Of a DNA stretch of 64,000 nucleotides, positions 20,954-64,000 are shown piece after piece (position 1 is the first letter of the stretch; the number at the start of each line of letters is the position of its first letter). The position numbers were made by a program, and so were the translations under genes. The DNA is from a virus (Duplodnaviria > Caudoviricetes). The stretch covers positions 1 to 64,000 of IMG/VR virus record IMGVR_UViG_3300031555_006395. One strand, given 5' to 3'. The notes beneath the pieces were generated by a model. That model searched no databases. It worked only from the letters and a program-made list of their open reading frames with translations, and was not told the origin of the DNA.

Positions 20954-21931
20954 CTAAACTTCAAAAATATCCTTGTTTTCACTTACTTTTCGTTTATCTG
21001 CACGAATATAGAATTTGTTAGTAACATCAGTAGATTGGTGATTCAGTAACGCAGACACATCCTCCAATGACATACCATTATTTTTAAGTAGTGTCGCACC
21101 GGAATGACGAAAATCATGTGGATGTAATGTTGGTACATCAATTAGCTCACCAACACGTTTGCACCATTGCGTTAAGGCACCAACCGAGGCCTGGACATAT
21201 TCATCGCCTTTGCTGACCACAAAAACAAAACCATTATCGTTTATTTGAGCATCTGCTCTATAATGACGAAGATGTTCTAGAAGATCCAATACTTCTTTAG
21301 AAAAATACAAAGTAACCAGATAACCTTCCTTCTCTAAAACATCATTTATCATTCGATTTTGGAAATCAATCATATCCCATTTGATATTATGGATAGCGTT
21401 AATTCTCGCCATGGTAGAAAGCGACAATAGAGCATAGCATTGAATTTGCATGGCGTAATGTTTATTGCTATGGGTATCCACATAGCTCGCAAGAACTTCA
21501 CGCATCAAATCGACTTGTTCTTTTGTTAGAAAGGTTTGAGTAATAATATCTGTATCCTTTTTGGGTCTATCAATAAACTCTGTAGGATTTTCGCTAATGA
21601 TTCGTTTTTTACGTAAAAATTTATAGAACGCAGCGATAGAAGAGATTCGACGTTTCATTCTACGAGAATTGTTTCCCTGCGTTTTACAATAGTAAAGAAA
21701 TTCAGTTATATCGTCCTCATCTAAATCAACAATCGATTGGTTACCTTGGTTATCATAGATATAAATCCACCATTGGGTCAGATCATTATAGTAACCATAA
21801 ATACTCTTAGGGCTTAATTCTCGAAGTGTCATATCAATTTCATACTTCTTCCAAAGCTTCAGTGTTTCTGGATTAATAAGTTTTAATTTTTCTTCATCAT
21901 AAAAACGAATCTTCTTACTTAATTCAGCCAT
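20954..21931 (-). CDS. Tyrosine recombinase (XerC/D-like), catalytic residues intact
   Basis: TMARINA (R), HPHDFRH (HxxR), LLNHQS...KFY (H, Y). Confidence 0.9.
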   Translation of the reverse strand: MAELSKKIRFYDEEKLKLINPETLKLWKKYEIDMTLRELSPKSIYGYYNDLTQWWIYIYDNQGNQSIVDLDEDDITEFLYYCKTQGNNSRRMKRRISSIAAFYKFLRKKRIISENPTEFIDRPKKDTDIITQTFLTKEQVDLMREVLASYVDTHSNKHYAMQIQCYALLSLSTMARINAIHNIKWDMIDFQNRMINDVLEKEGYLVTLYFSKEVLDLLEHLRHYRADAQINDNGFVFVVSKGDEYVQASVGALTQWCKRVGELIDVPTLHPHDFRHSGATLLKNNGMSLEDVSALLNHQSTDVTNKFYIRADKRKVSENKDIFEV

Positions 21932-27031: not shown

Positions 27032-29737
27032 TCAGGCTTTAGCGGAGATTCTTACCTGTCCACCAATTCTTCTCCTGGTGGCTTCGTTATTGGCTTTATA
27101 GAACTTTCGGTGTTTTGTATAACAATCTGGGCAAAGATCTTTTTGTCTGGCCGACGGATATACAGCAAATGTCTTACCACACATATGACAAACCGCTTCA
27201 CCTTTAACTCGTTCTAGATTAGAGATTTGATGATCCAAAGCGACATCACCGAAGCATTCAAAAAACACAGTTTTATTTTTTGTATTACGTTTCTCAAATA
27301 GATAACGCACCAAGACATCAACGATAAAATCGATATCCTTATACTTCTCAACGATCTCTTTACGAATTTGGCCATATACAAAAGAATAATTATTGCGCTC
27401 AGCATCACCGGTATAGAAATAAGATTTTACGGTTCTCGCATATTTTGAATAATCCTCTATCAAACTTTTCGCTAATCGAGTATTCATTCTGACTTTAGGA
27501 TTTTTCATTAATGTTGTGTGATCAAATGGACCGAGAAGATCAGCTGAAAAATAAAACTTATTTTTACCGATAATCCTTCTCATTCGATTAACAACACTGT
27601 CGTTGATTTGTTCGACCTGACTTTCGGTTTTCCCTTTAGCCTCAACAAAAAACACAGGTAACTTCGACTTACCATAATTAGCAAACCGCTGTTCAAGCTC
27701 CGGCGGGCGAACAGGCTTGTATAACGTCTTGGCGTAATCGATTACGAAGTTATTTTCCATACAAAGAAGTTTAATTATCTCAAGATCTGGTTCGTTGCTG
27801 TTCCAGATCTTCGTTATCTTATTACTGATTTCGCCAATATTACCACCTGTGTATGCAGCAATTAAACCGTTATAAATAACTGAGGGGGTAATAACCTGAG
27901 ATCCGGCTTTAGCCATATTGTAAAATAGGGGGACAATACCGTTCATATTACGTTCGGCGACAGACACAAAAGTTTCATCTGCACATACCAAACTCTTATC
28001 GCCATCATTATCGAATTGCAGCATTTTTGATATTAAATCGTGGCAACTTGTATAGATCCCTTTCGTAACAAACCATTTTCTATACTCCGCAGCCCTTTCT
28101 GTAGCCGCAATATTGGGACGAACAGCATGTTCACGATATAAATGGGGGCTTCTGAGACAATCAAGTTTTGCGTTTTTTCTAAATAAATCGCAGAAAACCT
28201 CGTCATTTTGAAGTAAACCACTTGGGTTTTTCTCGTTTTTAAATAAAAACTGGCAAAAGGCGAACAAATCGGGGATTAAAAACGTATAAACGCCTTTAAT
28301 ATCAATTTCACCGGCATAAGACTTACTTTCAATGCTATCACGTAACGACTTTATTACATTAGCAACATATGGATCCTGCAGGAGTCGCCAATCATTCGAC
28401 AACATCTGTTGCAAAGGGTTTAATTTTTTCCCTGGCTTAACACCGAAAACATTTAGCATCATCTGATAATCCCGACTGAGGCGGCAAAGCTTGTCTTTTG
28501 TCTTTGCGCAAACTGCAGTTAATTCTTCATCGGTAAAATCAGTTAATGTCTGAATCATCTGATAATTTAGGGTGGCGTAATCAAAGTCGTCCTCTTCATT
28601 GCATTTGCCAGCTTGACAGTTGTATTGCTCGTAATATTCGATGTACTGTTCCCAGCTCTCATAATACATCCACATTTTAAACTGGCTTTTGGTGAAGATA
28701 ACCTCAATTCCTTCTTCTAAAATGCGATGCTCTTTTCCGTAAATGTCTTTTACAACAACATCTTCTCCGCAATATTCAGAAATAAAATGATCGAAAGGGA
28801 AGACCGCCAATAGACCTTTTACCCACGGTAAACGAACCATCATATTAACGTTATTTACGCGAGGCAACATCATTCCACACCCATCGGTATGAGTAATCGG
28901 TACGTCCATCATGCGACGTTCTATCCGATATGTCTTATCGTCTATGAAATCCACAAGTCCATTTACATTTGTTTCAAAATCGTCTACAACAATAGATTTA
29001 TGTATATCAAAGCTCTCCCACACATCTGTGGCGCTATTACACAACGCAAGATATGCTAAGTACTTATTGACGTTTACTCCGCCGGCGGCGTTTATTTTAT
29101 CTAGCGTTAGTCCACACATTAGAGTATTTTGATGTTTTTCCCACAGGCTCTCACGAATAAACACCGTCTTCTTCGTACGAATCTGGCCGGCCGATGCTGT
29201 TAAGCAAATGTATTTTTCATCCCTCAAATAAAATCCGTTTTCAATAATGTCTTTTAATATAGGGAAATAATAAGCCCTAACAATAATAATATCCTCACTT
29301 AACTCCCCAGTCTGCATCTGTAACGTACGTGTTAGAAATGATTCGAAAATCGAAACCACATTCGTAACCTTCAAATGGAACTCACTAAGTTTTCTTATTT
29401 CATGATTCATAGGGAAAAGCTCGAACATTCTCTTCTTTTTACTATTGATACTTGCATTTAAAGCTTTTACAGCTGCCGGTATACCATCGACAATTTTTTG
29501 AATTTCGTCCGGCGAAGGGAAAGGGTCGTCTTTCATTAAATGCAAACATGCTTTTATTTGCTTCTCTACTCTTTTGGTTGGTTTCATCTGATACCTTCCC
29601 CACAGAGCGGCCAACTCTTTAATACGAGATTTTTCTCCTCGATCTAAACTCATCGAAATCGCAGTATATCTTTCGTCAGCAGTGTAAAATGCGCTAGTAT
29701 CAACACTATAGATATTTACCTGTCGATCTAAAGCTAT
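27032..29737 (-). CDS. yonO: YonO-type single-subunit RNA polymerase (RdRP-like double-psi fold), probable ATA start
   Basis: Catalytic FDNDGD, LRSPHLYREH, HTDGCGM; the conserved N-terminal IYSVDTSAFY lies upstream of the track ATG and is reached from ATA 29737. Confidence 0.9.
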   Translation of the reverse strand: MALDRQVNIYSVDTSAFYTADERYTAISMSLDRGEKSRIKELAALWGRYQMKPTKRVEKQIKACLHLMKDDPFPSPDEIQKIVDGIPAAVKALNASINSKKKRMFELFPMNHEIRKLSEFHLKVTNVVSIFESFLTRTLQMQTGELSEDIIIVRAYYFPILKDIIENGFYLRDEKYICLTASAGQIRTKKTVFIRESLWEKHQNTLMCGLTLDKINAAGGVNVNKYLAYLALCNSATDVWESFDIHKSIVVDDFETNVNGLVDFIDDKTYRIERRMMDVPITHTDGCGMMLPRVNNVNMMVRLPWVKGLLAVFPFDHFISEYCGEDVVVKDIYGKEHRILEEGIEVIFTKSQFKMWMYYESWEQYIEYYEQYNCQAGKCNEEDDFDYATLNYQMIQTLTDFTDEELTAVCAKTKDKLCRLSRDYQMMLNVFGVKPGKKLNPLQQMLSNDWRLLQDPYVANVIKSLRDSIESKSYAGEIDIKGVYTFLIPDLFAFCQFLFKNEKNPSGLLQNDEVFCDLFRKNAKLDCLRSPHLYREHAVRPNIAATERAAEYRKWFVTKGIYTSCHDLISKMLQFDNDGDKSLVCADETFVSVAERNMNGIVPLFYNMAKAGSQVITPSVIYNGLIAAYTGGNIGEISNKITKIWNSNEPDLEIIKLLCMENNFVIDYAKTLYKPVRPPELEQRFANYGKSKLPVFFVEAKGKTESQVEQINDSVVNRMRRIIGKNKFYFSADLLGPFDHTTLMKNPKVRMNTRLAKSLIEDYSKYARTVKSYFYTGDAERNNYSFVYGQIRKEIVEKYKDIDFIVDVLVRYLFEKRNTKNKTVFFECFGDVALDHQISNLERVKGEAVCHMCGKTFAVYPSARQKDLCPDCYTKHRKFYKANNEATRRRIGGQVRISAKA

Positions 29738-30363: not shown

Positions 30364-30682
30364 AAATTCTAATTAGTTGGTAGCCTGTACTGTGTTTTAG
30401 TACGCAGCAGGGTATAAACTGTAAAACATCAAGCATTGCTCTGACTGATGAAATAAAAACGCATCCGGTGTCATATAAACAATCGACAGCATCGAATACT
30501 GACAAATAATGATAGTACGCAATTTCATTTAAACTATCGAGATAGTAAAGAGAGGAAGGATCCTCATTTGATATACAACGCCAAGATTCTAATAATACCT
30601 TAATTTCATTGTCATTTACAGGCTCATACCGCTCTCCTTGTTCACCTCCATCCGTGGTTGGTAAAACCGAATTTTTACTGAT
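30353..30682 (-). CDS. Hypothetical protein, probable ATC start
   Basis: Promoter position excludes the track start at 30721; AGGAGG is followed 8 nt later by in-frame ATC. Confidence 0.55.
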   Translation of the reverse strand: MSKNSVLPTTDGGEQGERYEPVNDNEIKVLLESWRCISNEDPSSLYYLDSLNEIAYYHYLSVFDAVDCLYDTGCVFISSVRAMLDVLQFIPCCVLKHSTGYQLIRICEQ

Positions 30683-32142: not shown

Positions 32143-33018
32143 TTATTTTTTAATTTGATTAAGCTTAGCTGATACGTATTGGCTAAGAACTTCAAATCCA
32201 AGGTTATGATTCAGATATACAGATTTAATGACATCATTGGTGTAGCCGGCATATCTCAAAGTAATATCTGCTTTGGAATGACCAAAGATCTTTTGGAGGA
32301 GTTCAACGCTGTTGTAATGCTTTTCGAGGCCATCTACGGTATTAGCATTAGCAAGTACATGATATCCAAAAGTCTTTCTGAAACAGTGGGTACCAAATCT
32401 TCCTTCAATATTTAACTTGTACGCAGCCTTTTTAATAACATCTTCAGCAGCTCTTCTTGTCATTGGCTTTTGGATTGTAACAGTATTGCCATTCGGATCC
32501 TCAAAATCAATTGTGGGTGCATTCTTACTTTCACTTACAAACAGGTAATCATCATAGCTTTTACCGTTTGTATTAGACAGATAAATCTGAATGGCGAGTT
32601 TGGCTGCCTTATTAATGTAAACATGCCGGTTGGTTGTATGTTTACGAGTATTTGCGGTTTTACGCTCGACCAGGACGAGCTTCTCTCTAAACTGTTTAGT
32701 TTGAGGGTCAATAACGTCTTTAAATCGAATATTTGATAAATCAGAGAAGCGAAGTCCGAAATTGATTCCTAAGACCAGGAGCATCATATTCCGGTACTGG
32801 CCATTAGAAAGAAAATAAGAGATCAGACTGTTAATATCAGAAACGTTTTTAATGGGAGTAGCATCGTGCTCTTCAGCTGCTTCTAACGGATCATAAATAA
32901 GGGAAGGGGAGAGATTTGATTGAGAGTCTTGTAAAAGCGTTAACGGATCAAACCCTTTGGCGGCCGCCATTTGAGAGAAAAGATCTAAAAAGACCGGACT
33001 ATACGTAAATGTATTCAT
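32143..33018 (-). CDS. Tyrosine recombinase, catalytic residues intact
   Basis: FGLRFSD (R), THCFRK (HxxR), FGHS...LRY (H, Y). Confidence 0.9.
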   Translation of the reverse strand: MNTFTYSPVFLDLFSQMAAAKGFDPLTLLQDSQSNLSPSLIYDPLEAAEEHDATPIKNVSDINSLISYFLSNGQYRNMMLLVLGINFGLRFSDLSNIRFKDVIDPQTKQFREKLVLVERKTANTRKHTTNRHVYINKAAKLAIQIYLSNTNGKSYDDYLFVSESKNAPTIDFEDPNGNTVTIQKPMTRRAAEDVIKKAAYKLNIEGRFGTHCFRKTFGYHVLANANTVDGLEKHYNSVELLQKIFGHSKADITLRYAGYTNDVIKSVYLNHNLGFEVLSQYVSAKLNQIKK

Positions 33019-40544: not shown

Positions 40545-42116
40545 ATGAAAATGACACAGGCACAGAGAATGAAATTAGCAAAGTCTATAATGGATGTTTT
40601 GGATATGCATAAGCATCATTATACTGAAAAAGGAATTTATTATACGATCGACCGATGGTACGATAATAAAAAGCCGCTGATTGACATGTTGCGAAAACAT
40701 CCTAATTGGGATGAAACACTTTGGGCTGTACACTTTGATATGGATTACGAACGAGTAGGTAATGTAAATGCCGCACACGACTTGATTTATGCTCTATATC
40801 CGGCGTATGTTGGTGATGATTTGTATGGTTACCTTTACGACCTGTGTAATTCCACATGCGTTTCCTCTGAAAAGGCAGATGAAATTAACAATGATGTATC
40901 TTTACAACATCCGCTTCATGCCGGTGTGAAATCCACCAAGGCGATTAACCAAATCCTTGTAGAACATGGAATTGATGGGGAAATGGGTACGTACATTGAT
41001 GGTTACGGAAAAGAGCGCCGAGAATACGACCGATGGTTTGCGCAGCTCGCAGATACCCTGTCGCCGATGAAAATCACCAGACATACATTGTTAAGCGTTC
41101 ATCCTTGTGACTATCTGCATATGAGTTATGGCGGCAAAGACAATGGAGACGCTTGGCGTTCTTGTCATAGTCTTGACCATGGCGAATATATGACCGGCTG
41201 CCTTTCGTATATGTGCGATAACGTTTCGATGATTTTCTACACCACATCTAATACTTACTCCGGCGATGAATTTTACAATCAGCGAAAAATCAATCGCCAG
41301 GTATATGCATATGAAAATGGAACACTTTTGCAGAGCCGGCTGTATCCTAATTATGGAGATACTGGTATGTTTGCAAATTTTCGTTCTATTGTTCAAAACA
41401 TCATTGCTACAAGTTCTGATATCCCGAACAGATGGATTTTGAAAAAGGGTGTGAATACAAGTATCACTTTGACATGCGAAGACTCTACGCATTATCCCGA
41501 CTATGAATACGATGATTACAATACTAACATCGCAGTTCTTCGTGACCATGATCCACACCCAATTGTCATTGGATCTGTGGCACATTGCCTTGATTGTTGT
41601 GAACCGCATACCGAAAGCAATCATCTTCGTTGTCTGTCGTGTACGGCAATTGGAATTTGCGCTATTTGCGGGCATCCTATTCAAGAAGGTGAATTTCACT
41701 ATACCGATGAAAATGGAAATATGTTCTGCGGAGCTTGCTGTTATTATTGCGAAGGATGTCAAACTTACCATTCTATGAATGTGCATTATCACGTTGTGAG
41801 AGGTTACAGTTATTGTGATAAGTATTACGAAGCACATAAAGTAACCTGCAGTCATTGTGGAAAAATCTATATGGATTATCAAATGCATAGGGGGTTGAAT
41901 GGGGAATCAATGTGTGTTAGTTGCTTGAATACCATATATCCTAGATGTTTTGTGTGTGGAGAAAGACATAAATTTAATCACACAATGAAAGACATCTGGG
42001 GTGATCCTCGGCCTATCTGCGAAAAATGCTATGAGCAGATACCAACGACGTATCAAGATGGTATATGCTCTACTTCTACAACTTCAACAACAGGATACTA
42101 TAATATTGTGTTTTAA
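40545..42116 (+). CDS. Large multi-zinc-ribbon protein, paralog 2
   Basis: Clearly homologous to 37115-38752; 42-bp identical DNA block. Confidence 0.75.
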   Translation: MKMTQAQRMKLAKSIMDVLDMHKHHYTEKGIYYTIDRWYDNKKPLIDMLRKHPNWDETLWAVHFDMDYERVGNVNAAHDLIYALYPAYVGDDLYGYLYDLCNSTCVSSEKADEINNDVSLQHPLHAGVKSTKAINQILVEHGIDGEMGTYIDGYGKERREYDRWFAQLADTLSPMKITRHTLLSVHPCDYLHMSYGGKDNGDAWRSCHSLDHGEYMTGCLSYMCDNVSMIFYTTSNTYSGDEFYNQRKINRQVYAYENGTLLQSRLYPNYGDTGMFANFRSIVQNIIATSSDIPNRWILKKGVNTSITLTCEDSTHYPDYEYDDYNTNIAVLRDHDPHPIVIGSVAHCLDCCEPHTESNHLRCLSCTAIGICAICGHPIQEGEFHYTDENGNMFCGACCYYCEGCQTYHSMNVHYHVVRGYSYCDKYYEAHKVTCSHCGKIYMDYQMHRGLNGESMCVSCLNTIYPRCFVCGERHKFNHTMKDIWGDPRPICEKCYEQIPTTYQDGICSTSTTSTTGYYNIVF

Positions 42117-42123
42117 GGAGGAT

Positions 42124-42552
42124 ATGAAAATGAAAGAAATCAGAACAATTAAAATGGTGGAGAGCGTTGAAGTGCAGTTTGTTGCAAATGACGGCACCGT
42201 TTTTGAAGGCGATAATGCTGAAATGAAATGTATCAATTATGAACGCACTTGTGATGTAAAGAAAGTTAAAGAAAGATTTAAACGTTTAGAGTCGAAAGTG
42301 TTAAATACCTCTTATATTGAATGGTTTTATCCTGATGGTCGTTTTAGAAAGATTCTTCTAAATTCTAAAAGCGATTATATCGCTATGATGGATTATTACA
42401 ATGTGGTTATTCAAGTGTGTGACAATGATTTAAATGAACCGGCATCATATCCATACTCAATGATTGTTGCAGAGTACTTTGATTACGTCACAGAGTACAT
42501 CGGCGACTTGGCGTCTGAACTGCAGAAAACCATTGACCAGCTTAATGAATAA
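42124..42552 (+). CDS. Hypothetical protein
   Basis: AAGGAGG site; true start at 42124 or 42130. Confidence 0.7.
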   Translation: MKMKEIRTIKMVESVEVQFVANDGTVFEGDNAEMKCINYERTCDVKKVKERFKRLESKVLNTSYIEWFYPDGRFRKILLNSKSDYIAMMDYYNVVIQVCDNDLNEPASYPYSMIVAEYFDYVTEYIGDLASELQKTIDQLNE

Positions 42553-42574
42553 TTAAGAATGATTAAAGGAGGAC

Positions 42575-42832
42575 ATGAAAATGGATGAAAAACTAATCGT
42601 CTATCGTGTTGGTTTTAATGATGGAGATGAAACAGAAGTCGATGCAGAATCTGAAGCTGAAGCGATTGAATTGGCCAAAACAATTGCAACAGAAAGTGGA
42701 GTAGGATTTGAACTTGATTATGTAGAGCCTTGCGGTTATAAGATTTCCGGTGGCAAAATGGTGGACGAAAAGACTGGCAAAACTCTGCTCACCTTTGGTG
42801 AGGGCAGTATTTTATTCGGAAATAAGATGTAG
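42575..42832 (+). CDS. Small acidic protein with VDAES motif
   Basis: AAGGAGG site. Confidence 0.65.
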   Translation: MKMDEKLIVYRVGFNDGDETEVDAESEAEAIELAKTIATESGVGFELDYVEPCGYKISGGKMVDEKTGKTLLTFGEGSILFGNKM

Positions 42833-42853
42833 TTTTAAGTGGAGGATTTGAGT

Positions 42854-42982
42854 GTGAATGAATATAAGGTAGCAATCACCATTGAAAGTGATGAAGAAAT
42901 TTATGGTGAGGAATTTTGGGTAAGAGCAGATAGCATTGATGAAGCAATGGAATATATCAAAAGTAAACTTGATGTAGATTAA
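42854..42982 (+). CDS. 42-aa acidic micro-protein (not in the ORF track)
   Basis: GGAGG site then GTG; NEYKVAITIESDEEIYGEEFWVRADSIDEAMEYIKSKLDVD. Confidence 0.65.
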   Translation: MNEYKVAITIESDEEIYGEEFWVRADSIDEAMEYIKSKLDVD

Positions 42983-43018
42983 AAGAATTATTTTAAGTGG
43001 TTTATGGAGGATTTAATT

Positions 43019-43276
43019 ATGCGTAAGATGAATAAAGAAGAAAAGAAACTGATTGAAGTTGAAATCACAAGTATGATGCAATTCGCAGTCGGAAGCGATT
43101 ATGCAAGATACATTCTTGGAGACAAGGGCGAAGATGGTGAAAATACCTTTATTGAAGATGTGATTGAAGATGTGATGTGTGCCTCTGCTTGGGGAGACGA
43201 GGGATTCTATAGTAGTGATGATGTTCGTCTTGCTATTGGCAGAGTACTGATGGATAGAATGGGAATTTACTATTAA
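43019..43276 (+). CDS. Small acidic hypothetical protein
   Basis: GGAGG site. Confidence 0.65.
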   Translation: MRKMNKEEKKLIEVEITSMMQFAVGSDYARYILGDKGEDGENTFIEDVIEDVMCASAWGDEGFYSSDDVRLAIGRVLMDRMGIYY

Positions 43277-43302
43277 AATGTAATTTTATGAGGTAAATAT
43301 AT

Positions 43303-43608
43303 ATGAGAAAAGATATTATGCTTGGAGTAAATAGCAAAAGTAATCGTTGTTGTAAACTTCTTTGCTTAGTGCCGTTTGAGAGAATTGTATCTTCAGAAGT
43401 CGAAGAATCTGATTTTATTCACGATGCTACAAACTGGTGTGGAAATGATGAAATCAAAAGAACTCTTGAACTTATCAAGATGAAGCAGACTGGGAATAAA
43501 ATTGTTCTTGATAAGCCTATTGTATTTCATGGATATGATTATGATTGGGGCAGAGAATGTCCTTGGCAGTTTGAAGTCGATGAAATTCACGAATTGGAAG
43601 AGATTTAA
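43303..43608 (+). CDS. Hypothetical protein
   Basis: GAGGT site after a junction palindrome. Confidence 0.65.
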   Translation: MRKDIMLGVNSKSNRCCKLLCLVPFERIVSSEVEESDFIHDATNWCGNDEIKRTLELIKMKQTGNKIVLDKPIVFHGYDYDWGRECPWQFEVDEIHELEEI

Positions 43609-43633
43609 AAGGATAATTTTATGAGGTGAAAGT

Positions 43634-43822
43634 ATGAATAGATACCTTATGAGAATTGAGGGTTATTTTTCTGGATGGAAACAGTTTGAGATTGAAGCAG
43701 ACAATAAGCAGGACGCTGTAGTAAGAGCAAAGGAATATTGTAAGAAACATTCCGAATATGGCATTGGTGGAAATTATAAGTTTGATTCAATCGAATGTGT
43801 TAAGAAGTTGAATATAAAATGA
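43634..43822 (+). CDS. Small protein with IEADN motif
   Basis: GAGGTG site. Confidence 0.65.
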   Translation: MNRYLMRIEGYFSGWKQFEIEADNKQDAVVRAKEYCKKHSEYGIGGNYKFDSIECVKKLNIK

Positions 43823-43842
43823 CGATTTTGTGAGGTAGCGAT

Positions 43843-44040
43843 ATGGATTACAAAATAGAAGTTGATATGTGCCCACACGAATGGGATAACGAAAATAGAC
43901 CTTATTTTTGGATGATAACCAACGGTGTTTGTAACAACGGTTTTGGATGGAGCGAAACACCAGAACAAGCATGGAAAGATGCGTTAAATTATTATATTTA
44001 CCATGTAAAAAGTAATTTACGGGGTGGTGAAACGGTGTGA
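43843..44040 (+). CDS. Small hypothetical protein
   Basis: GAGGT site. Confidence 0.6.
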   Translation: MDYKIEVDMCPHEWDNENRPYFWMITNGVCNNGFGWSETPEQAWKDALNYYIYHVKSNLRGGETV

Positions 44041-44309
44041 AAAACGGATGCAAAGATTTTATTTCTCCTACAATGGATAAGATTAAAATCGAACCCTTTT
44101 TTGAGAATCGTTTGCACGATATTGCTTTTGCTCAAGTTAGTTTACGACATTTAAATAATAGGGGTGTATATTTAGAAGATACTATACAACTTACGCAAGA
44201 ATTGTATAAATACATTATCTATCTGTATTCTCATATAGAACAACTTGAAAAAGACAAGCAGTACTTATTGGCTCAATATTTAAAAAAACACAAAAGAGAT
44301 AGGTTGTGA
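44037..44309 (+). CDS. Small hypothetical protein
   Basis: GGGGTG site, GTG start. Confidence 0.6.
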   Translation: MKNGCKDFISPTMDKIKIEPFFENRLHDIAFAQVSLRHLNNRGVYLEDTIQLTQELYKYIIYLYSHIEQLEKDKQYLLAQYLKKHKRDRL

Positions 44310-44313
44310 TGAT

Positions 44314-44547
44314 ATGGATATCTTATATGATTGTTATGACGAAAATGAAAAGCCTATTGGGATTATTTTTGCTAAAGATTGTGCCGATTTATTGCAGAAA
44401 AATCCAAATGTAAAATATGTGAGAGGAATCGATGCTGTTACTCGCAGACCTCATTGGCACAAGGTAAAAGAAAATGGTTTATGGCCTTACCAACCCAAAG
44501 TTAAAGCGCATAGGGACGAAAGTGACTGGCATTATTCAGACTATTGA
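44314..44547 (+). CDS. Small hypothetical protein
   Basis: Packed within the operon. Confidence 0.6.
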   Translation: MDILYDCYDENEKPIGIIFAKDCADLLQKNPNVKYVRGIDAVTRRPHWHKVKENGLWPYQPKVKAHRDESDWHYSDY

Positions 44548-44583
44548 ATACATAAAAGAGTGATTTTGTGAGGAGGTAATGAA

Positions 44584-44823
44584 ATGGCAAGAATCTGGTT
44601 CAGAGTAGGTATGGAAGCGGATGTGACAGAAGAAGAAATGAATACCCTGCTTGTTTATAGTGGACAAGCGGAAGGTAAAAGAGATTGGAAAAAGGCACAG
44701 ACCGTTATGAAATCTATCATTAAAAGATCAGAATTAAGCGGAGAAACTTACATCTTAGGTAAAGATTGCGGAGGTGTAGATAATTACGATAATCCAGATA
44801 ATGAAATTGGTTTCTTTTTCTAA
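44584..44823 (+). CDS. Small hypothetical protein
   Basis: GAGGAGG site. Confidence 0.65.
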   Translation: MARIWFRVGMEADVTEEEMNTLLVYSGQAEGKRDWKKAQTVMKSIIKRSELSGETYILGKDCGGVDNYDNPDNEIGFFF

Positions 44824-44865: not shown

Positions 44866-45129
44866 ATGAATGTAGATCGAGAAAGATTAACGAAACTGTT
44901 GAATCAAATTAAATACACAAGAATTGAAAATGCGGTTAATATTCTGATTGATAATGGTGTGGTAATTCGGAAATGCGGAAAACCAATTGAACATACTGAG
45001 ATTTTCTTCAATTCGGATGGAAAGCCGGTTGTAGAATACATAGTTGGTAAGGCATGTCCGTTCTGTGAAAGTACAACGATTGAAAACTACTGTGCCAACT
45101 GTGGTGCGAAAATGGATAAGGAGGAATAA
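44866..45129 (+). CDS. Zinc-ribbon protein ending YCANCGAKMD
   Basis: CPFC...CANC. Confidence 0.65.
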   Translation: MNVDRERLTKLLNQIKYTRIENAVNILIDNGVVIRKCGKPIEHTEIFFNSDGKPVVEYIVGKACPFCESTTIENYCANCGAKMDKEE

Positions 45130-45131
45130 CT

Positions 45132-45479
45132 ATGCGGTTGATTGATGCTGATGCGCTGAAAAAGAAAGCGAGGTATGCGTTCGAGTCAAATACGGGTGGG
45201 CATATTCCTCCCGTAGTAAGCGCAGACGATATTGACGATGCTCCCACCATCGAAGCCGAACCTGTGAAGCGTGGGCAGTGGATTGGGGATGGGTATTATG
45301 AAAAACCGTGCGTTTGCTCCTATTGTGGTGCAGAAGCACATTATATAAGCACATTCAAAGAGACCTATGACTATGATTGGGAAGAAAATTTGCAATCCAC
45401 GGGGTTTGAAGAAATCTGTGAATATATTAAATCCGATTACTGCCCGAACTGCGGTGCAAAGATGGATTTGGAGGAATAG
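45132..45479 (+). CDS. MRLIDAD-type zinc-ribbon phage protein
   Basis: MRLIDADAL start, CSYC...YCPNCGAKMD end. Confidence 0.75.
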   Translation: MRLIDADALKKKARYAFESNTGGHIPPVVSADDIDDAPTIEAEPVKRGQWIGDGYYEKPCVCSYCGAEAHYISTFKETYDYDWEENLQSTGFEEICEYIKSDYCPNCGAKMDLEE

Positions 45480-45481
45480 TT

Positions 45482-45823
45482 ATGCGGTTGATTGATGCAG
45501 ATAAGCTTAAAGCGGTTTGGATTCGCTTTAAAAAGAGTGATATTGCCGATGGCGGTGGATTTGTATATGACCCTGATGATGTAATTGAAACGATTGACGA
45601 AAGTGAAACCGTCGAAGCTGAGCCTGTGAAGCACGGACGGTGGAAGAAAAGCAAGAAAGAAAAAATGTATTGCGATTGGGAAATGAATGGTTGGTTTGAT
45701 TATCCGGAAATCTGTACGAATTGCGGATATGATGCAACTGAGGATGGAATGGGAGTTGGAAACTACTGCCCTAACTGTGGTGCGAAGATGGATTTGGTGG
45801 GTGAGAAAAATGAAAGAGTATAA
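45482..45823 (+). CDS. MRLIDAD-type zinc-ribbon phage protein, tandem paralog
   Basis: Same termini as the upstream gene. Confidence 0.75.
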   Translation: MRLIDADKLKAVWIRFKKSDIADGGGFVYDPDDVIETIDESETVEAEPVKHGRWKKSKKEKMYCDWEMNGWFDYPEICTNCGYDATEDGMGVGNYCPNCGAKMDLVGEKNERV

Positions 45824-46168: not shown

Positions 46169-46197
46169 TTGAATTTATCCTATCGTTGTGGCATACT
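46169..46197 (+). promoter_or_regulatory. sigma-A promoter for phd/doc
   Basis: TTGAAT-N17-CATACT with TG extension. Confidence 0.6.
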
Positions 46198-46218
46198 ATT
46201 ATTAAAGGAGGTATGAAA

Positions 46219-46461
46219 ATGAATGTGAATACGAATAATCTTGTGTCCATTACCGAAGCGAATCAGAATTTTTCCAAAGTGGCGCGCCTTGTTGACGAAA
46301 ATGGGCCTGTTGTTATCCTGAAAAATAATGTACCCAAGTATGTTGTTATTGAATTCGATCAGGTAGCAACGGAGCAGATTGCCGGAGACGAAGATGTTAA
46401 AACTCTTTCCAAGCGTCTGATGGAAAAGAATCGTAAAGCCTACGAGGTACTTGCGAAATGA
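46219..46461 (+). CDS. phd: Phd/YefM-family antitoxin
   Basis: VSITEANQNFSKVARLVDENGPVVILKNNVPKYVVI. Confidence 0.88.
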   Translation: MNVNTNNLVSITEANQNFSKVARLVDENGPVVILKNNVPKYVVIEFDQVATEQIAGDEDVKTLSKRLMEKNRKAYEVLAK

Positions 46462-46838
46462 AAAAATTAAGCTACAACCAAGTCGTTTCATTGCATCATG
46501 AAATGATTATGGAAACAGGCGGGGTAGAAGGAATTCGTGACAATACTTTGTTAGAATCAGCATTGAATGCTCCCTTTCAAGGATACCAAGACACGTATTT
46601 CTACCCAACGATCCAACAAAAAGGGGCAAGATTAGGCTATGGGCTAATTAAAAACCATGCATTTTATGACGGCAATAAGAGAATTGGCGCCCACGTTATG
46701 TTGATCTTTTTAGAATTAAATGGTGTACATCTTACATATTCTCAAGAGGAGTTGATTGATATCGTTTTGCAGATCGCAAGAGATGTTAAAACATTCGATG
46801 ATTTAACTCAGTGGATCTATCAACATGAAAAGAAATAA
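46458..46838 (+). CDS. doc: Doc/Fic-family toxin
   Basis: HAFYDGNKRIG Fic motif; ATGA overlap with the antitoxin. Confidence 0.92.
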   Translation: MKKLSYNQVVSLHHEMIMETGGVEGIRDNTLLESALNAPFQGYQDTYFYPTIQQKGARLGYGLIKNHAFYDGNKRIGAHVMLIFLELNGVHLTYSQEELIDIVLQIARDVKTFDDLTQWIYQHEKK

Positions 46839-46843
46839 ACGGT

Positions 46844-46870
46844 AAAAGCCCAGCGATTGCTGGGCTTTTC
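46844..46870 (+). terminator. Intrinsic terminator closing phd/doc
   Basis: AAAAGCCCAGC-GATT-GCTGGGCTTTT. Confidence 0.8.
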
Positions 46871-47765: not shown

Positions 47766-47793
47766 TTGACATTTTAATCATATTATATATAAT
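47766..47793 (+). promoter_or_regulatory. sigma-A promoter
   Basis: TTGACA-N16-TATAAT. Confidence 0.6.
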
Positions 47794-47805: not shown

Positions 47806-49344
47806 ATGATAAAAATGAAAACAATGGATGTACATAACTGGAATGACTTTAAAAATAATTCGATGGAGAGGGTTCGCCTTCTCGATACGATTGTAAGAGC
47901 TGTTGAATACGATGGCGGTGCAGAATGTATTGCCGGTACGAATACTCTTGACGAGATTAAGTCTTTATTCCCTCAGTACAGAAAGACTTATAAAAATAAT
48001 AAACTTTACATTGAAAAGGAGCAGAGAACTATGAAAACTATCGCCAACATGAATCACGAAGATACTTACGAAATGGATAATGTTATCAGTTTGAATATGC
48101 TGGATGCGGAAGACATTATCAATGACGAGATCGATAGCGCCGATGAAGAGCAGGTAATGGAGGCCGACGAAGTAATGGAGGCTCTGAGCGCCGCAGCCGA
48201 AGAGCTCGATGATGAAAATGAAATTGAAATGAAGCAGCATGATTGGTCTTCTGAAACAATTACCGTCAGAGCTCTTTTAAAAAGATATAAGGACAATAAA
48301 ATTGAATTGCCGCTGTGCCAGAGACTTTATGTCTGGACAAAGAACCAGCGTGAAGCATTGATGGATTCTGTACGTCTTGGTCTCCCTTGTGGAATGATCA
48401 TTGTTGCTGATGTAGACGGCAAAAAATATCTTCTCGATGGACTGCAGAGAACAACGTCGCTGATGCTTATGAGCGACAACAAGAATCTGACCGCCGAAGA
48501 AAAGAAAATGATTCTGGATTATAAGATTACCATTGGAACGGTTTACGATATGGACATTGCCACTATGAAAATGTATTTTGGTCGATTGAATAGCGGTATG
48601 GCTTTGGCTACTGCAGTCAAAGAGAGATCGAAACTTTCTGAAGCTATCAATAACGCCATCCTGAAGGTCGCCAGTCATCCTTTCTTTAGAGATGCCGATA
48701 CAAATGCCACTTTCAAAAAGGCGCATCATCATGAGCTGATCGCCATGAATTCGCTTTTGGCGGCTTCTAAATGCGATCAGACGAAGAATAACGCAAAAGA
48801 GTTGGGCAGAGCGCTGGCCGCAAATGAAAACGTGATTCTGGAAAATGTAGATAAAGCCTGTAAGCTTGTTGAGCGTATGATGAACGTAATGGCTGAGCTG
48901 CCCGCTGCGGTTATGAAACGCGCCATGAATGCAAACTATATTGGAGTGTTGGCATTTGTACTGGCTCGAAATGAAATCAGCGATAAAGCTGTAAAAGCTG
49001 CAACCGAATATATCTTTAAAGATAAACGAGCGGTAAAATCTTATTCCCGTACTACCAGTTCTGGTGCCGGTGATCTTCGTATGGTGAAACAGAGATACGA
49101 CGTGATTCTCGATGTAGTTAAAACATACAGTGATGCCGGATCGACCAATGAAGATGCTTTTAAAGTTTGGTGCCAGGACAATAGTAATGGTGTATTGAAA
49201 ACTTCTGATAAAGAGTATATCGTGGACTTCAATGAGTTTATTCAGGCGGAAAAAGAGGCGTTGTTTAATGCGATGCGAAAGAATGATATGAAAACCTACG
49301 ATAAAATTATCCGTACTACCTATAATAACTTGGAGGCAGAGTAA
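47806..49344 (+). CDS. DUF262 (ParB/Srx-like, GmrS-type) domain protein
   Basis: LPLCQRLYVWT...LMDSVRLGLPCG...YLLDGLQRTTSL. Confidence 0.8.
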   Translation: MIKMKTMDVHNWNDFKNNSMERVRLLDTIVRAVEYDGGAECIAGTNTLDEIKSLFPQYRKTYKNNKLYIEKEQRTMKTIANMNHEDTYEMDNVISLNMLDAEDIINDEIDSADEEQVMEADEVMEALSAAAEELDDENEIEMKQHDWSSETITVRALLKRYKDNKIELPLCQRLYVWTKNQREALMDSVRLGLPCGMIIVADVDGKKYLLDGLQRTTSLMLMSDNKNLTAEEKKMILDYKITIGTVYDMDIATMKMYFGRLNSGMALATAVKERSKLSEAINNAILKVASHPFFRDADTNATFKKAHHHELIAMNSLLAASKCDQTKNNAKELGRALAANENVILENVDKACKLVERMMNVMAELPAAVMKRAMNANYIGVLAFVLARNEISDKAVKAATEYIFKDKRAVKSYSRTTSSGAGDLRMVKQRYDVILDVVKTYSDAGSTNEDAFKVWCQDNSNGVLKTSDKEYIVDFNEFIQAEKEALFNAMRKNDMKTYDKIIRTTYNNLEAE

Positions 49345-53101: not shown

Positions 53102-54403
53102 GTGATAAAATTGATTCATAACAGAGAAGAGCTTAATAAAGCCCTACAAACAATTTTTCAAACGAATGATGCTGTACTGCGTTCTGGCGCAGCTCAAAAA
53201 CTTTATGAAAATAAAGGTATTTCCCAAATTGAAGTATTTAATATTTGGGGTGGAAATACGGCCATCGAAGATGCTCCTGATGAATTAGTTTGTGCTCTGG
53301 CTCAATTTCTTCACCCTCACAACAAGAGATTGTTACAAGGATGGGATACTCTTTTTACAGATGAAGTGAAAAATAAATCCTTTAAACAAAAAACGGATGA
53401 TGAAAAGACTTACCCAATTATTATTAAAAATGCAGTTTTAATTAACCATAATCATTACCTTGCATCGATTCACATTTCGCAACTGTTTAAGCTTCAGCAT
53501 CAAGGTTTACTGAGACGAGAAGCAGATACACAGCGAGAAACCATTACAAAGGTTGTCAATGGTGTGAAAATCTCGTATATCAACGTGGATTATGACCAGG
53601 TGTTTCAAATTGCGAAGGCATTAAAAGAACGAAAATATTTCCCCGATGAGCTTAAAATTAATATCATTGATAATGGAAACGCCCTATTTGAATATGATGA
53701 TAATAAAAAAGAGTTAATTATTCGCGCCGGCGATTTAAGCGTTGTCGATGGTAATCACCGTCTTTTGGCGATTGAAGCTGCGATGGGGGAGGATCCTACA
53801 ATAGACTTATCTTTCCCTGTATCGATAACCTATTATCCAATTTGGAAATCGCAGGAAATGTTAATCCAACAGGAGAAAAAGCGCCCCATCAATAAAGCTT
53901 TGATTAAAACGTTTGCAAATACGCAGGAAAATGCTGTCGTAGCTGAAATTTATCGAAATAACCTGCTCATGCCTGGACTTGAGATTACTAAAGAAGAATA
54001 CGCAGCATATAATGGTTATGCGCATATTCTGTATTCTGACCTTGCTGATGCTGTTAATTTAAGCTACTCTCAAACAGAAATAGCGATGAAAAAAGATGAG
54101 GTCGTCGAGAATGTCGTAAAAGCAATCAATCTCTTCGCAATGAATAAATCTCATTTCTTTTTCAATGAGTCAGGGTCGATTCGACGTAGAAATCTATTCA
54201 TTAAAAAATGCGGCGGTTTGTACTATATGATTAAAGCGTATCAATATGCTCAAAAGAGTACGGATTCCAGTGCAGTTTATTTAAATATTATTGAAAATAC
54301 AGATTATGATCGTTATTCCTATGCATTTACTCATGCAGGGCCTAACAATCTAAACCAGGTTCAGGCAATCGATCGTTTGATTGAGGAGGCCGCTCATGCT
54401 TAA
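53102..54403 (+). CDS. DGQHR/ParB-like domain protein (SPbeta YopQ-like)
   Basis: VVDGNHRLLAI; preceded by QRE...I-V-xxQV; adjacent to an MrpR-like gene. Confidence 0.72.
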   Translation: MIKLIHNREELNKALQTIFQTNDAVLRSGAAQKLYENKGISQIEVFNIWGGNTAIEDAPDELVCALAQFLHPHNKRLLQGWDTLFTDEVKNKSFKQKTDDEKTYPIIIKNAVLINHNHYLASIHISQLFKLQHQGLLRREADTQRETITKVVNGVKISYINVDYDQVFQIAKALKERKYFPDELKINIIDNGNALFEYDDNKKELIIRAGDLSVVDGNHRLLAIEAAMGEDPTIDLSFPVSITYYPIWKSQEMLIQQEKKRPINKALIKTFANTQENAVVAEIYRNNLLMPGLEITKEEYAAYNGYAHILYSDLADAVNLSYSQTEIAMKKDEVVENVVKAINLFAMNKSHFFFNESGSIRRRNLFIKKCGGLYYMIKAYQYAQKSTDSSAVYLNIIENTDYDRYSYAFTHAGPNNLNQVQAIDRLIEEAAHA

Positions 54404-55343
54404 CGAAGAATTAAAAATGGAATATCTAAATGCTGTTTGTATGAACGCTCCCGAATCCCGCAGAACGGTTTATATAAACAAAATGAAACGCCTGTCTCAG
54501 AATATTGAGGTTGTCTTTAATAAGGATTTTTGCAATATTTCATTTGGAGAATACCAAGCTTTCTTTACAAGCGGCGCTTATTCTGATACCCGTACTGCCG
54601 GTAATGATTTACGTTTCATTTCGAATTATATCGAGTGGTGTTTTTACAACAACAAATTCCCACGTGTGATGAATAATGCGCAGCTTTTGTTAAAACAGCT
54701 GAAGCCAACAGATATTGTTAAAGGTGCCATTCGAAACAAGATTTTATTTTCACCTGCAGAATTAATCGATTATATAGATATATTGTGTTCAGGAAGTTCA
54801 AAATACTACTTGTTTATGCCTGTTTCAATTCTTCTGTTTTCTGGTGTTTCGTTCGATGAAATACACTTGATCAAACGCGATGATATTGATAATCTTGCGA
54901 TGACAATTCATTTCAACGATGTAATTTTAGATATTCCCCATGAATTTCAATTACACGTTAATAGAATTCTAAATCGAGAGAAAAAAGTTGAGGTCTTCGC
55001 TTTTAGAACCGATGATTCTCGTTCGTACACAATGTATGACGCATATCCGGATATGTTTTGTACTGTATATAATCACACAGGTATTCCACCGTCAAATTCG
55101 ATACAGAAATCTTATACTGTCTCTTTATCTACCGCAAAGGCAGCTGTTGATACGGGAGTTAAAAAAATCGGACCGTTGGATATTGCTATCTCAGGTTTAT
55201 TTTATCGGTTAAATAAAAACAAATATACGGATTTAAATAATCCATTGGCGCAGCAATTTTTATTGAGATTTAATAATTCTGGAAATAAAATGAAAGAATT
55301 AACCCTGTTATATAGTGAGTATTTAGATAGTATAAATGAATAG
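54396..55343 (+). CDS. Catalytically dead tyrosine-recombinase-fold protein, MrpR (YopR)-like repressor
   Basis: SAM-like N-terminal region; LLFSGVSFDEI lacks the catalytic Arg and DIAISG replaces HxxR. Confidence 0.65.
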   Translation: MLNEELKMEYLNAVCMNAPESRRTVYINKMKRLSQNIEVVFNKDFCNISFGEYQAFFTSGAYSDTRTAGNDLRFISNYIEWCFYNNKFPRVMNNAQLLLKQLKPTDIVKGAIRNKILFSPAELIDYIDILCSGSSKYYLFMPVSILLFSGVSFDEIHLIKRDDIDNLAMTIHFNDVILDIPHEFQLHVNRILNREKKVEVFAFRTDDSRSYTMYDAYPDMFCTVYNHTGIPPSNSIQKSYTVSLSTAKAAVDTGVKKIGPLDIAISGLFYRLNKNKYTDLNNPLAQQFLLRFNNSGNKMKELTLLYSEYLDSINE

Positions 55344-55388: not shown

Positions 55389-55417
55389 TTGATAAAATTA
55401 GAGTTTTATGTTATAAT
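55389..55417 (+). promoter_or_regulatory. sigma-A promoter for mazF
   Basis: TTGATA-N17-TATAAT with TG extension. Confidence 0.75.
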
Positions 55418-59263: not shown

Positions 59264-59494
59264 ATGGCAATGAAACCGCAACAGTTACAAGAGTTTGAAA
59301 AAATGGTGCATGACAAAATGAAACAGGTATACAACGATGGAATGACTGTGGGCGCAAAAGCAATTATGTCTGCTATTAATGATATGATTGAGCGTGGAAA
59401 AGGTCGGCCTTGCAAAATGATTCTTTCTGAAATCAAAAGCTTTGTCAGCACCGCCGTAAGGGAGGAAAACGATGAGAATACTTCTGCTTCTTAG
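59264..59494 (+). CDS. Small hypothetical protein
   Basis: AGGAGG site. Confidence 0.7.
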   Translation: MAMKPQQLQEFEKMVHDKMKQVYNDGMTVGAKAIMSAINDMIERGKGRPCKMILSEIKSFVSTAVREENDENTSAS

Positions 59495-61688
59495 AGGTAG
59501 TCCTGGTTGTGGAAAAACGACTTGGATTGAAAAAAATGGTTTAAAACCATACACTCTGTCTGCCGACGATATTCGCATGATGTGCCAAAGCCCAATTTTA
59601 ACTGTTAATGGCGGCGAAGCAATTGATCAAACGAACGATAAATTGGTTTGGCAGACATTATTTAAATTACTTGAAAATCGAATGGAAAAGGGCGCTTTCA
59701 CGGTAATCGATGCAACAAATTCTAAAACGACTGAAATGAATCGGTATAAAACTTTATGTGAGACATATCGCTATCGTATTTATTGTGTCGATTTTACTGA
59801 TATCCCTATTGATGAAGCAAAACGCAGAAATAAATGCCGTCCTTTATCGAAAGTCGTTCCTGAAGAAGTAATCGATAAAATGTATTCCAGATTTGCAACT
59901 CAGAAAATACCCTCTGGCATTAAAGTAATTCGTCCTGACGAATTAGACTCTATTTGGATCCACAAAATTGATCTTTCGCAATACAATAAAGTCCATATGA
60001 TTGGCGATATTCATGGGTGTTGCACTGTATTAAAAGAATATATGGATGCAAATTGGAATGAAAATGATTTTTATATTTTTTGCGGAGATTATATCGATCG
60101 TGGCATTGAGAACGTACAGGTAATTAATTATCTGCTTTCTATTTATACCAAGCCTAATGTTTTATTATTAGAGGGTAACCATGAACGATGGCTTCAGATA
60201 TATGCTCATGGAGGAGCAACCAGGTCACAAGAATTTGAAACGCATACAAGAGCCCAGTTAGATGCAGCCAATTTCGACAATCGACAGCTCCGGCAGCTAT
60301 ACAGGAAACTTGGACAATGCGCTTACTTTTCCTTCGGTGACTACACTTATCTTGTAACGCATGGTGGCTTAAGCCAAATTCCAATCAATCTCAGTTTAGT
60401 TCCTACACATCAAATGATTCATGGAGTTGGCAGCTACAGTGATTATGAAAAGGTTGCCGACACTTTTTATTATTGTACCCCTGAGAAAACCTATCAGGTT
60501 TTTGGGCATCGAAATATTAAAAATGCTCCTATTCAATTAAACGATAAAGTATTTGATCTCGAAGGTGGAGTTGAGTTTGGCGGATCTTTGCGATGTGTCC
60601 AATTTGCGAAAGATGGATCTTTTGAAACATTTTCAATAAAGAATAATGTGTATCGTCAAACTGAATCAAAACCTCAAGAGGTATCGAATAATAAAACCGT
60701 TGCCGACATTATTGTTGAGTTCCGAAATAATAAGTATATCAAGGAAAAGAAGTTTGGTAATATATCATCTTTTAACTTTACCCCTACAGCGTTTTATGAA
60801 AAGATTTGGGATTCTCAAACTATTAAGGCCAGAGGACTATATATCGATATTGAAAAACAAAAAGTAGTTGCACGCAGCTATGAAAAGTTTTTTAGAATTA
60901 ACGAGCGGCCGGAAACGAAGTTGGAGATGTTGCAGTATAAACTTCAATTTCCAATTAGCATTTATGTTAAAGAAAATGGATTTTTGGGAATTGTTAGCTA
61001 CGACGAGTATAAAGATGATCTGTTTGTAACAACGAAATCTGATCCTACCGGTGATTACGCAGAATGGTTAAAGGCTATGTTATGCGAGAAATTATCGGAT
61101 CAACAGAGATTACAGTTAAAGGAATACTGCAAACAGCATAATGTTTCCTTTATTTTCGAATGTGTTGATATGAAAAACGATCCTCATATCATCGAGTACC
61201 AAGACAATCAACTGTATTTGTTGGACATTATAAAAAACGCAATTACATTTGAAAAATTGCCATATGAGGATCTTTGTCATGTTGGTCATAGTATTGGACT
61301 GCTTGTTAAAACGAAAGCTTGCGATATATGCACTTGGCAGGAGTTTTACGATTGGTATCATGAGGTCAACTTAGAGGATTATGAATATAATGGCGCACCG
61401 GTCGAGGGTTTTGTTATTGAGGATTCGAAAGGATATATGGTAAAGGTAAAACTTCATTATTATAACTTTTGGAAATTCATGAGAGGCATCTCCCATGAAA
61501 CCCTTCGGAAAGGATATATTTCAAAAACATCTTCATTAACATCAGCGCTGGCGAATCAATACTACGGGTGGCTTAAATCTATTTATGATCCACAGAATCG
61601 TGATCAAATACCGAAAGATATTATTACATTAAGAAAAATGTTTTATATCGCAATGGCTGAAAAGGAGGGGTTTTCCAATGATTGTTAA
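59472..61688 (+). CDS. RNA repair enzyme: polynucleotide kinase + metallophosphatase + Rnl1-type ligase
   Basis: GSPGCGKT P-loop and DATN; GDIHG, GDYIDRG, GNHE; ligase KENG, FE, EGFVI and VKVK. Confidence 0.92.
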   Translation: MRILLLLRGSPGCGKTTWIEKNGLKPYTLSADDIRMMCQSPILTVNGGEAIDQTNDKLVWQTLFKLLENRMEKGAFTVIDATNSKTTEMNRYKTLCETYRYRIYCVDFTDIPIDEAKRRNKCRPLSKVVPEEVIDKMYSRFATQKIPSGIKVIRPDELDSIWIHKIDLSQYNKVHMIGDIHGCCTVLKEYMDANWNENDFYIFCGDYIDRGIENVQVINYLLSIYTKPNVLLLEGNHERWLQIYAHGGATRSQEFETHTRAQLDAANFDNRQLRQLYRKLGQCAYFSFGDYTYLVTHGGLSQIPINLSLVPTHQMIHGVGSYSDYEKVADTFYYCTPEKTYQVFGHRNIKNAPIQLNDKVFDLEGGVEFGGSLRCVQFAKDGSFETFSIKNNVYRQTESKPQEVSNNKTVADIIVEFRNNKYIKEKKFGNISSFNFTPTAFYEKIWDSQTIKARGLYIDIEKQKVVARSYEKFFRINERPETKLEMLQYKLQFPISIYVKENGFLGIVSYDEYKDDLFVTTKSDPTGDYAEWLKAMLCEKLSDQQRLQLKEYCKQHNVSFIFECVDMKNDPHIIEYQDNQLYLLDIIKNAITFEKLPYEDLCHVGHSIGLLVKTKACDICTWQEFYDWYHEVNLEDYEYNGAPVEGFVIEDSKGYMVKVKLHYYNFWKFMRGISHETLRKGYISKTSSLTSALANQYYGWLKSIYDPQNRDQIPKDIITLRKMFYIAMAEKEGFSNDC

Positions 61689-63960: not shown

Positions 63961-64000
63961 TTCATCGAATAAAACCTGTATTTTGTTTAGAAAATATTGC

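Follow-up and report, generated by a model that had tools for sequence, protein, structure and literature searches.

Position-specific palindromic junctions as probable borders of accessory-gene exchange in an SPbeta-like phage and its relatives

Decades ago it was proposed that modules are bordered by conserved 'linker' sequences, which have rarely been found since. It is an open question how small accessory genes, many of which likely act in defence or counter-defence, are turned over by phages both rapidly and tidily. We analyzed a 64,000-nucleotide stretch of phage DNA (the window; bases 1-64000 of the 81,681-bp IMG/VR virus record IMGVR_UViG_3300031555_006395, estimated completeness 67%), in which a cluster of small genes at 42.1-44.6 kb is punctuated by a short palindromic element. 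This 16-bp element combines universal arms with position-specific centres and marks the exact borders of swapped sequence, both in gut phages that are uncultured and in SPbeta, the model phage. Sequence comparison indicates that the palindromes most likely denote the places at which phages exchange accessory genes. We consider it probable that they serve as slot-specific, or 'addressed', crossover junctions for exchanging accessory-gene cassettes in a hypervariable array.

Several described systems resemble this arrangement in part. In T4-type phages, the PeSL cassettes likewise have short conserved intergenic motifs flanking small variable genes in hyperplastic regions, and these motifs have been proposed as exchange points between otherwise unrelated sequences (PMC2839356, PMC4122927). 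A PeSL, however, is a terminator stem-loop with an early promoter, and its copies resemble one another, whereas the junction described here is a 16-bp unit with no stem-loop and no promoter, a centre of its own in each copy and a fixed order. Identity with PeSL was rejected, given that the junctions show neither a terminator-like stem-loop nor an excess of promoter-like matches. In mycobacteriophages, the Cluster K SAS and ESAS and the Cluster A stoperators are also short repeats in one orientation, located in small intergenic gaps beside start and stop codons, and ESAS are inverted repeats with a variable spacer (PMC3203893, PMC9283540). SAS and ESAS accompany the gene family downstream of them, while the present junction stays as the genes on both sides change. 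The small open reading frame (ORF) islands of clostridial prophages are alike in their gut Clostridia hosts, Acutalibacteraceae among them, and in the rapid turnover of their small genes; for these hypervariable islands no recombinase was found and no cis element was reported (AcrIIA22 paper, PMC8545432). The junction element may supply this missing cis element. No description of it was found in that paper or in the SPbeta papers covered here. As the element is present in SPbeta, the idea of exchange at such borders is directly testable in Bacillus subtilis.

Site-specific recombination systems offer further parallels. The pdif/dif modules of Acinetobacter plasmids (XerC/XerD; PMC6449649) include many inverted-arm sites with a 6-bp centre that flank mobile accessory modules; pdif sites are reported to be 28 bp long (11-6-11) and match the host dif, whereas the arms here are 5 bp and the centres position-specific. 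Set against the 28-bp Xer/dif layout, the junction has the 6-bp centre and the inverted inner arms but no conserved outer arm. No convincing likeness of the element to the B. subtilis dif site is apparent either. In the laboratory, recombinase-mediated cassette exchange is established with heterospecific lox and FRT sites, which have 13-bp arms and a known enzyme. As proposed for the junctions, these sites have universal arms and differing centres, and only like centres recombine, which swaps a cassette and leaves the order undisturbed. The lox and FRT systems are engineered; in the phages, an identical pattern would result from short-homology recombination. Should an enzyme take part, the junctions would represent a natural counterpart of these engineered systems.

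Junction elements in the small-gene array

The cluster contains five intact junction elements and three or four decayed ones, all on the plus strand. The unit is 15-16 bp long, with dyad-symmetric arms (TAAAA and TTTTA) around a six-base centre, and the intact elements sit between the preceding stop codon and the following ribosome site. They are found at 42980-42995 (centre GAATTA), 43274-43288 (TGTAA, one A fewer than the ATGTAA of relatives), 43606-43621 (GGATAA), 43815-43830 (TGACGA; the last right-arm base is G here and A in all relatives) and 44553-44568 (GAGTGA; the right arm again ends in G). At 42980, 43274 and 43606, the TAA of the element itself is the stop codon of the preceding gene. 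The stop at 43815 is a TGA inside the centre and that at 44553 lies 8 nt upstream of the element; since the left arm is retained where the stop lies elsewhere, it must be more than a stop codon. Among the decayed copies, the one at 42101-42115 has its right arm overlapped by the stop of a 523-aa gene, and that at 42823-42837 holds the TAG stop of an 83-aa gene within its centre. The third (44006-44020) lies within the 3' end of a 65-aa gene and resembles a centre, AGTAGA, of the relative L150. With three degenerate copies and two arms ending in G, the array of the window looks partly decayed.

All nine palindromes reported in the initial annotation were found in their places, although the outlying one at 63970 is followed by no ribosome site and is probably a chance occurrence. 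The exact pattern matches 22 times on both strands versus 4.2 +/- 2.7 times in dinucleotide shuffles, and none of 100 shuffles reaches 22. A right arm fused to a ribosome site (TTTTRTGAGG) is seen four times, with 0.36 expected, and all four are in the cluster.

The junctions delimit ten single small genes, or cassettes, of 42-140 aa on the plus strand (42130-44823; starts at 42130, 42581, 42854, 43019, 43303, 43634, 43843, 44037, 44314 and 44584). These genes are mutually unrelated; all of their Pfam matches fall below cut-off, and the single PHROG match is marginal. One 54-aa occupant has no meaningful match among solved structures, and an AcrIIA22-like identity was rejected for it on this ground. 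A search for relatives through the 523-aa protein upstream of the array found none. DNA similarity of the array to cultured phages is likewise absent, and locus L063 has only trivial matches to them.

Shared junctions and unrelated genes among relatives

The order of the centres in the window, GAATTA, (A)TGTAA, GGATAA, TGACGA and GAGTGA, is identical in two prophage loci, one on a contig of a Clostridia metagenome-assembled genome (MAG; L155) and the other on a Lachnospiraceae MAG prophage contig (L152). A subset of the centres, with order kept, occurs in L148 (from Acutalibacteraceae), L150 (from Faecalimonas), L147, L092 (its lineage a complete 172.7-kb phage) and G006. The last of these is very distant, with a YonO-like protein 22% identical to that of the window and other matched proteins at 21-44%. 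Identity reaches 21 nt at the GAATTA junction (L155, L152), 22-24 nt at GGATAA (G006, L092, L155, L152, L150) and 16-18 nt at GAGTGA (G006, L092, L155, L152, L147, L148, L150). A random pair of centres would match with a probability of about 7e-4, corresponding to about 0.04 matches expected against L155, where 5 are seen. Low-complexity arms in AT-rich intergenic DNA could in principle recur by chance, yet such an origin is refuted by the shuffle tests and by the identical centres across genomes, and we regard it as negligible.

In contrast to the junctions, the occupants of any shared slot are mutually non-homologous (blastp, E ≤ 1e-3). The GGATAA-TGACGA slot has six different occupants and the TGACGA-GAGTGA slot has nine. 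For an unbiased view, exact shared words of at least 13 nt were collected between 8 kb of the window and seven 8-kb stretches. All five intact junctions were found again, at 14-24 nt, and every exact match of at least 19 nt contains a junction, some extending into the ribosome-site leader. Matches of 16-18 nt outside junctions are ribosome-site leaders, except for one 17-nt match within a gene. Rightward of the element, the ribosome-site portion differs with the downstream gene, and the conserved core is therefore the 15-16-bp palindrome. Comparison of these loci thus shows identity confined to islands at the junctions, which lie exactly where one swapped, unrelated sequence meets the next. 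G006 itself carries two arrays (~17.9-19.5 kb; 28.6-28.9 kb, minus strand) that have the centres TGACGA and GAGTGA in common and different genes between them.

A pattern scan of viral contigs extended the occurrence of the element to phage contigs of ~33% G+C, where it precedes 14-27% of genes and is always on the coding strand. When sites were anchored on ribosome-site context only, the left arm appeared at the fixed six-base distance in 84-95% of 111 sites. The stop of the preceding gene is the TAA of the element in 60% of sites and lies elsewhere in 40%. In this second family (G001, G002, G004, G005), 46 distinct centres were counted, 23 of them identical between contigs. Beyond the first 10 nt, the 90-nt flanks of a shared junction are no more alike than random sequence (26-38% identity), the relative order is kept in 185 of 187 co-occurring core pairs, and the genes between junctions are mostly singletons. 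A 205-kb phage (IMGVR_UViG_3300032167_000020, here G003; locus L134) has a 1.5-kb block with five junctions at 123.5-125 kb. The centres of all five match those of the G002 family, and the block looks like an import. No YonO match is present in five junction-rich contigs, one of them 92% complete, and a link between the element and the YonO polymerase was rejected on this basis.

The initial annotation had proposed comparing relatives for gene gain or loss with breakpoints at the motif. The outcome is positive both for the uncultured relatives and for cultured SPbeta-like Bacillus phages, whose indels and replacements are bordered by the motif. In SPbeta, the strict palindrome occurs 16 times within bases 50-100 kb (0.89 expected) and 5 times within bases 1-50 kb (0.95 expected). 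Thirteen of the 16 copies are intergenic, and many fall within the yoq run of small genes. Homology blocks of 91-99.9% identity that SPbeta shares with phi3T, Goe11, Goe13 and Goe14 start or stop at palindrome sites. The copy after yoqC has three different left flanks among the compared phages, the copy after yoqI has three different right flanks, and in phi3T the end of yoqG is joined, via the left arm, to the centre that follows yoqI in SPbeta. For SPbeta and phi3T, a copy is found no more than 15 nt away from 5 of 24 block ends, a significant excess over the 0.4 expected at random positions. One SPbeta copy (L136:182-197, record 50182) is located between the late genes yonC and yonB, and the ribosome-binding GGAG of yonB is inside its centre.

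Crossover at the junctions and alternative readings

At the precise border of each exchange, one short sequence is common to both partners, and the simplest inference is then that the junctions are the actual crossover points. Under the proposed exchange, a series of junctions would be common to related and very distant SPbeta-like phages in a kept order, with universal arms and a six-base centre unique to each position. Co-resident phages would recombine by crossing over at or in shared junctions, and the segment of one to three genes between two junctions would be replaced as a cassette. The array would remain collinear, each incoming gene landing between the upstream stop and its own ribosome site.

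A number of observations weigh against this interpretation. Shared descent alone would make relatives collinear, and what is informative is how the junctions contrast with their flanks. The 15-24 bp of identity are at or under the usual minimum for efficient homologous recombination, and five-base arms are short for a tyrosine recombinase. Homologous genes are sometimes found beside different centres, indicating that exchange is not strictly slot-bound; the window gene at 42854-42982, for example, has a 63%-identical homologue in G001 that is flanked there by two different centres. Selection tends to place breakpoints at gene borders anyway, and a null model in which any gene junction may serve predicts ~3.7 coincidences with 5-7 seen (an estimate), leaving a weak excess for SPbeta and phi3T. 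The argument is consequently carried by the sequence-level evidence.

As to the catalyst, short-homology recombination is our leading candidate, at somewhat less than an even chance; an arm-recognising protein, either a recombinase or a nickase, is a plausible second of lower probability, and other activities take up the rest. Short-homology recombination fits because the phage has genes for a Sak-like annealing protein and for an exonuclease (G000:65094-66907 of the same phage). Phage recombinases resembling Rad52 are known for driving relaxed recombination (PMC3945230). An arm-reading protein fits because Bacillus SPbeta and the clostridial phages have the dyad-symmetric arms and the six-base spacing in common, and exchange driven by plain homology needs neither.

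The initial annotation suggested an integron-like system of single-gene cassettes, and a refined form of that idea is a special case of addressed exchange. A dedicated recombinase, with a phage or host Xer-like tyrosine recombinase as one candidate, would bind both arms and carry out strand exchange over the six-base centre. Recombination would be limited to sites that have identical centres, amounting to natural recombinase-mediated cassette exchange with heterospecific sites. The position-specific, conserved centres are in keeping with such an enzyme, as is the presence of tyrosine recombinases in G000, G001, G002, G004, G005, G006, G010, G011 and G012. The window itself encodes two Xer-like tyrosine recombinases, both candidates only, on the minus strand (20954-21931, 325 aa; 32143-33018, 291 aa), 9-21 kb distant from the small-gene array. 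Nevertheless, the arms span just 5-6 bp and lack an extended symmetric flank, genes occur beside different centres, and one phi3T junction is broken within the right arm. By blastp, the clostridial phages share no recombinase orthologue with SPbeta YopP or YomM, and two junction-bearing phages, G003 (92% complete, five junctions) and G013, have no PF00589 match. No recombinase common to all junction-bearing phages was found. A dedicated recombinase is accordingly possible but doubtful. We are similarly tentative about a cassette-exchange system shared by SPbeta-like phages from Bacillus to the gut Clostridia, in which a conserved protein would read the arms and strand exchange would need identical centres. 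If true, each accessory slot has its own address, and very different phages trade genes without scrambling the genome.

The resemblance to integrons proper extends to promoterless single-gene cassettes in one orientation. The part of the earlier proposal that treats the sites as cassette boundaries stands, on the evidence of gene gain, loss and replacement among relatives; the integron-like part does not. An IntI-type integrase is absent, the best window recombinase scoring 22 bits against TIGR02249, for which the cut-off is 265. Sites of the attC type are 57-141-bp imperfect palindromes with GTTRRRY boxes, and are structured, gene-travelling and IntI-dependent. No site of this kind is present here; the junctions are 15-16 bp with AT arms, and unlike in attC the variable centre is mostly tied to position and does not travel with the gene. 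An integron was thus rejected on the lack of IntI, the site anatomy and the positional centres.

Alternatively, the palindrome could be a repeated protein-binding or expression signal and nothing more (an operator, 'stoperator', insulator or stop/restart punctuation), and it would coincide with swapped borders only because selection favours breakpoints between genes. A dimeric DNA-binding protein would fit the dyad symmetry, the element provides stops in two reading frames, and its distance to the ribosome site is fixed in the clostridial families. Moreover, a perfect copy of the palindrome at 55393-55408 (plus strand), directly 3' of the MrpR-like gene, occupies the spacer of a consensus sigma-A-type promoter (-35, 17 nt, TG-extended -10), and one copy in SPbeta adjoins the aimR SPBRE. 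However, no stable RNA fold was detected at the five junctions (z-scores of -1.5 to +0.3 vs shuffles), none has a terminator-like site, and promoter-like matches number 33, with 32 expected. Of 107 genes called crudely in the contig, only 2 are preceded by the strict form; the junction elements are confined to accessory arrays and are no general translation signal of the phage's genes. A signal alone also leaves unexplained why centres differ within a genome yet are identical across phages with 21-44% identical proteins and unrelated flanks. We therefore judge the signal-only explanation improbable. The copy at 55393, being inside a consensus promoter, means that the arms may also bind a regulator, with a regulatory role coexisting with that in exchange. 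Two further perfect copies on the minus strand lie at a late-gene junction (6794-6809) and in an intergenic stretch (30662-30677).

A more specific regulatory proposal, put forward as an alternative in the initial annotation, is that the sites are operators of the MrpR-like repressor, equivalent to SPBRE. MrpR has a recombinase fold, and the SPBRE that we derived from seven SPbeta promoters consists of short inverted arms around a ~7-bp spacer. Yet this element differs in sequence from the junction, its centre is invariant, and its roughly ten occurrences are at promoters. Published chromatin affinity precipitation sequencing (ChAP-seq) of MrpR gave ten peaks in named promoter regions, which do not include the palindrome-bearing yoq junctions (PMC10516654). 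The operator proposal is not supported, and the chance that it is correct appears very slim.

Genomic setting of the array

The source phage of the window is SPbeta-like, with a YonO-type RNA polymerase, an MrpR-type protein and a large genome. The YonO-like single-subunit RNA polymerase, an SPbeta-like marker, is encoded at 27032-29653 on the minus strand and is followed by structural genes on the same strand. The MrpR-like protein (54381-55343, plus strand) matches in the N-terminal core-binding domain only, with no match to the catalytic domain.

The plus-strand half of the window is an accessory region rich in small ORFans. It encodes a Phd/Doc pair, a GmrSD-like nuclease, a Lar-like protein and a DndB-like protein, as well as an RNA-repair kinase/phosphatase/ligase. 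Just beyond the array, three tandem paralogous small genes (44866-45823; 87, 115 and 113 aa) have a common C-terminal zinc-ribbon motif, and the first residues of the last two are alike. The junctions among these paralogues are near-identical via duplication and are not the palindrome. The Phd/YefM-type antitoxin and Doc (Fic-family) toxin at 46186-46838 were assigned from their N-terminal sequences, and the pair is followed by a strong bidirectional terminator (46844-46869). A sigma-A-type promoter with a perfect 12/12 match is positioned at 47766-47793, just 5' of the GmrSD-like nuclease gene (47806-49344). The RNA-repair protein (59472-61688) is a 738-aa Pnkp-like fusion of a kinase, a metallophosphatase and a T4-type RNA ligase, and probably functions in counter-defence against anticodon nucleases; its gene is followed by one for a PcfJ-like protein.

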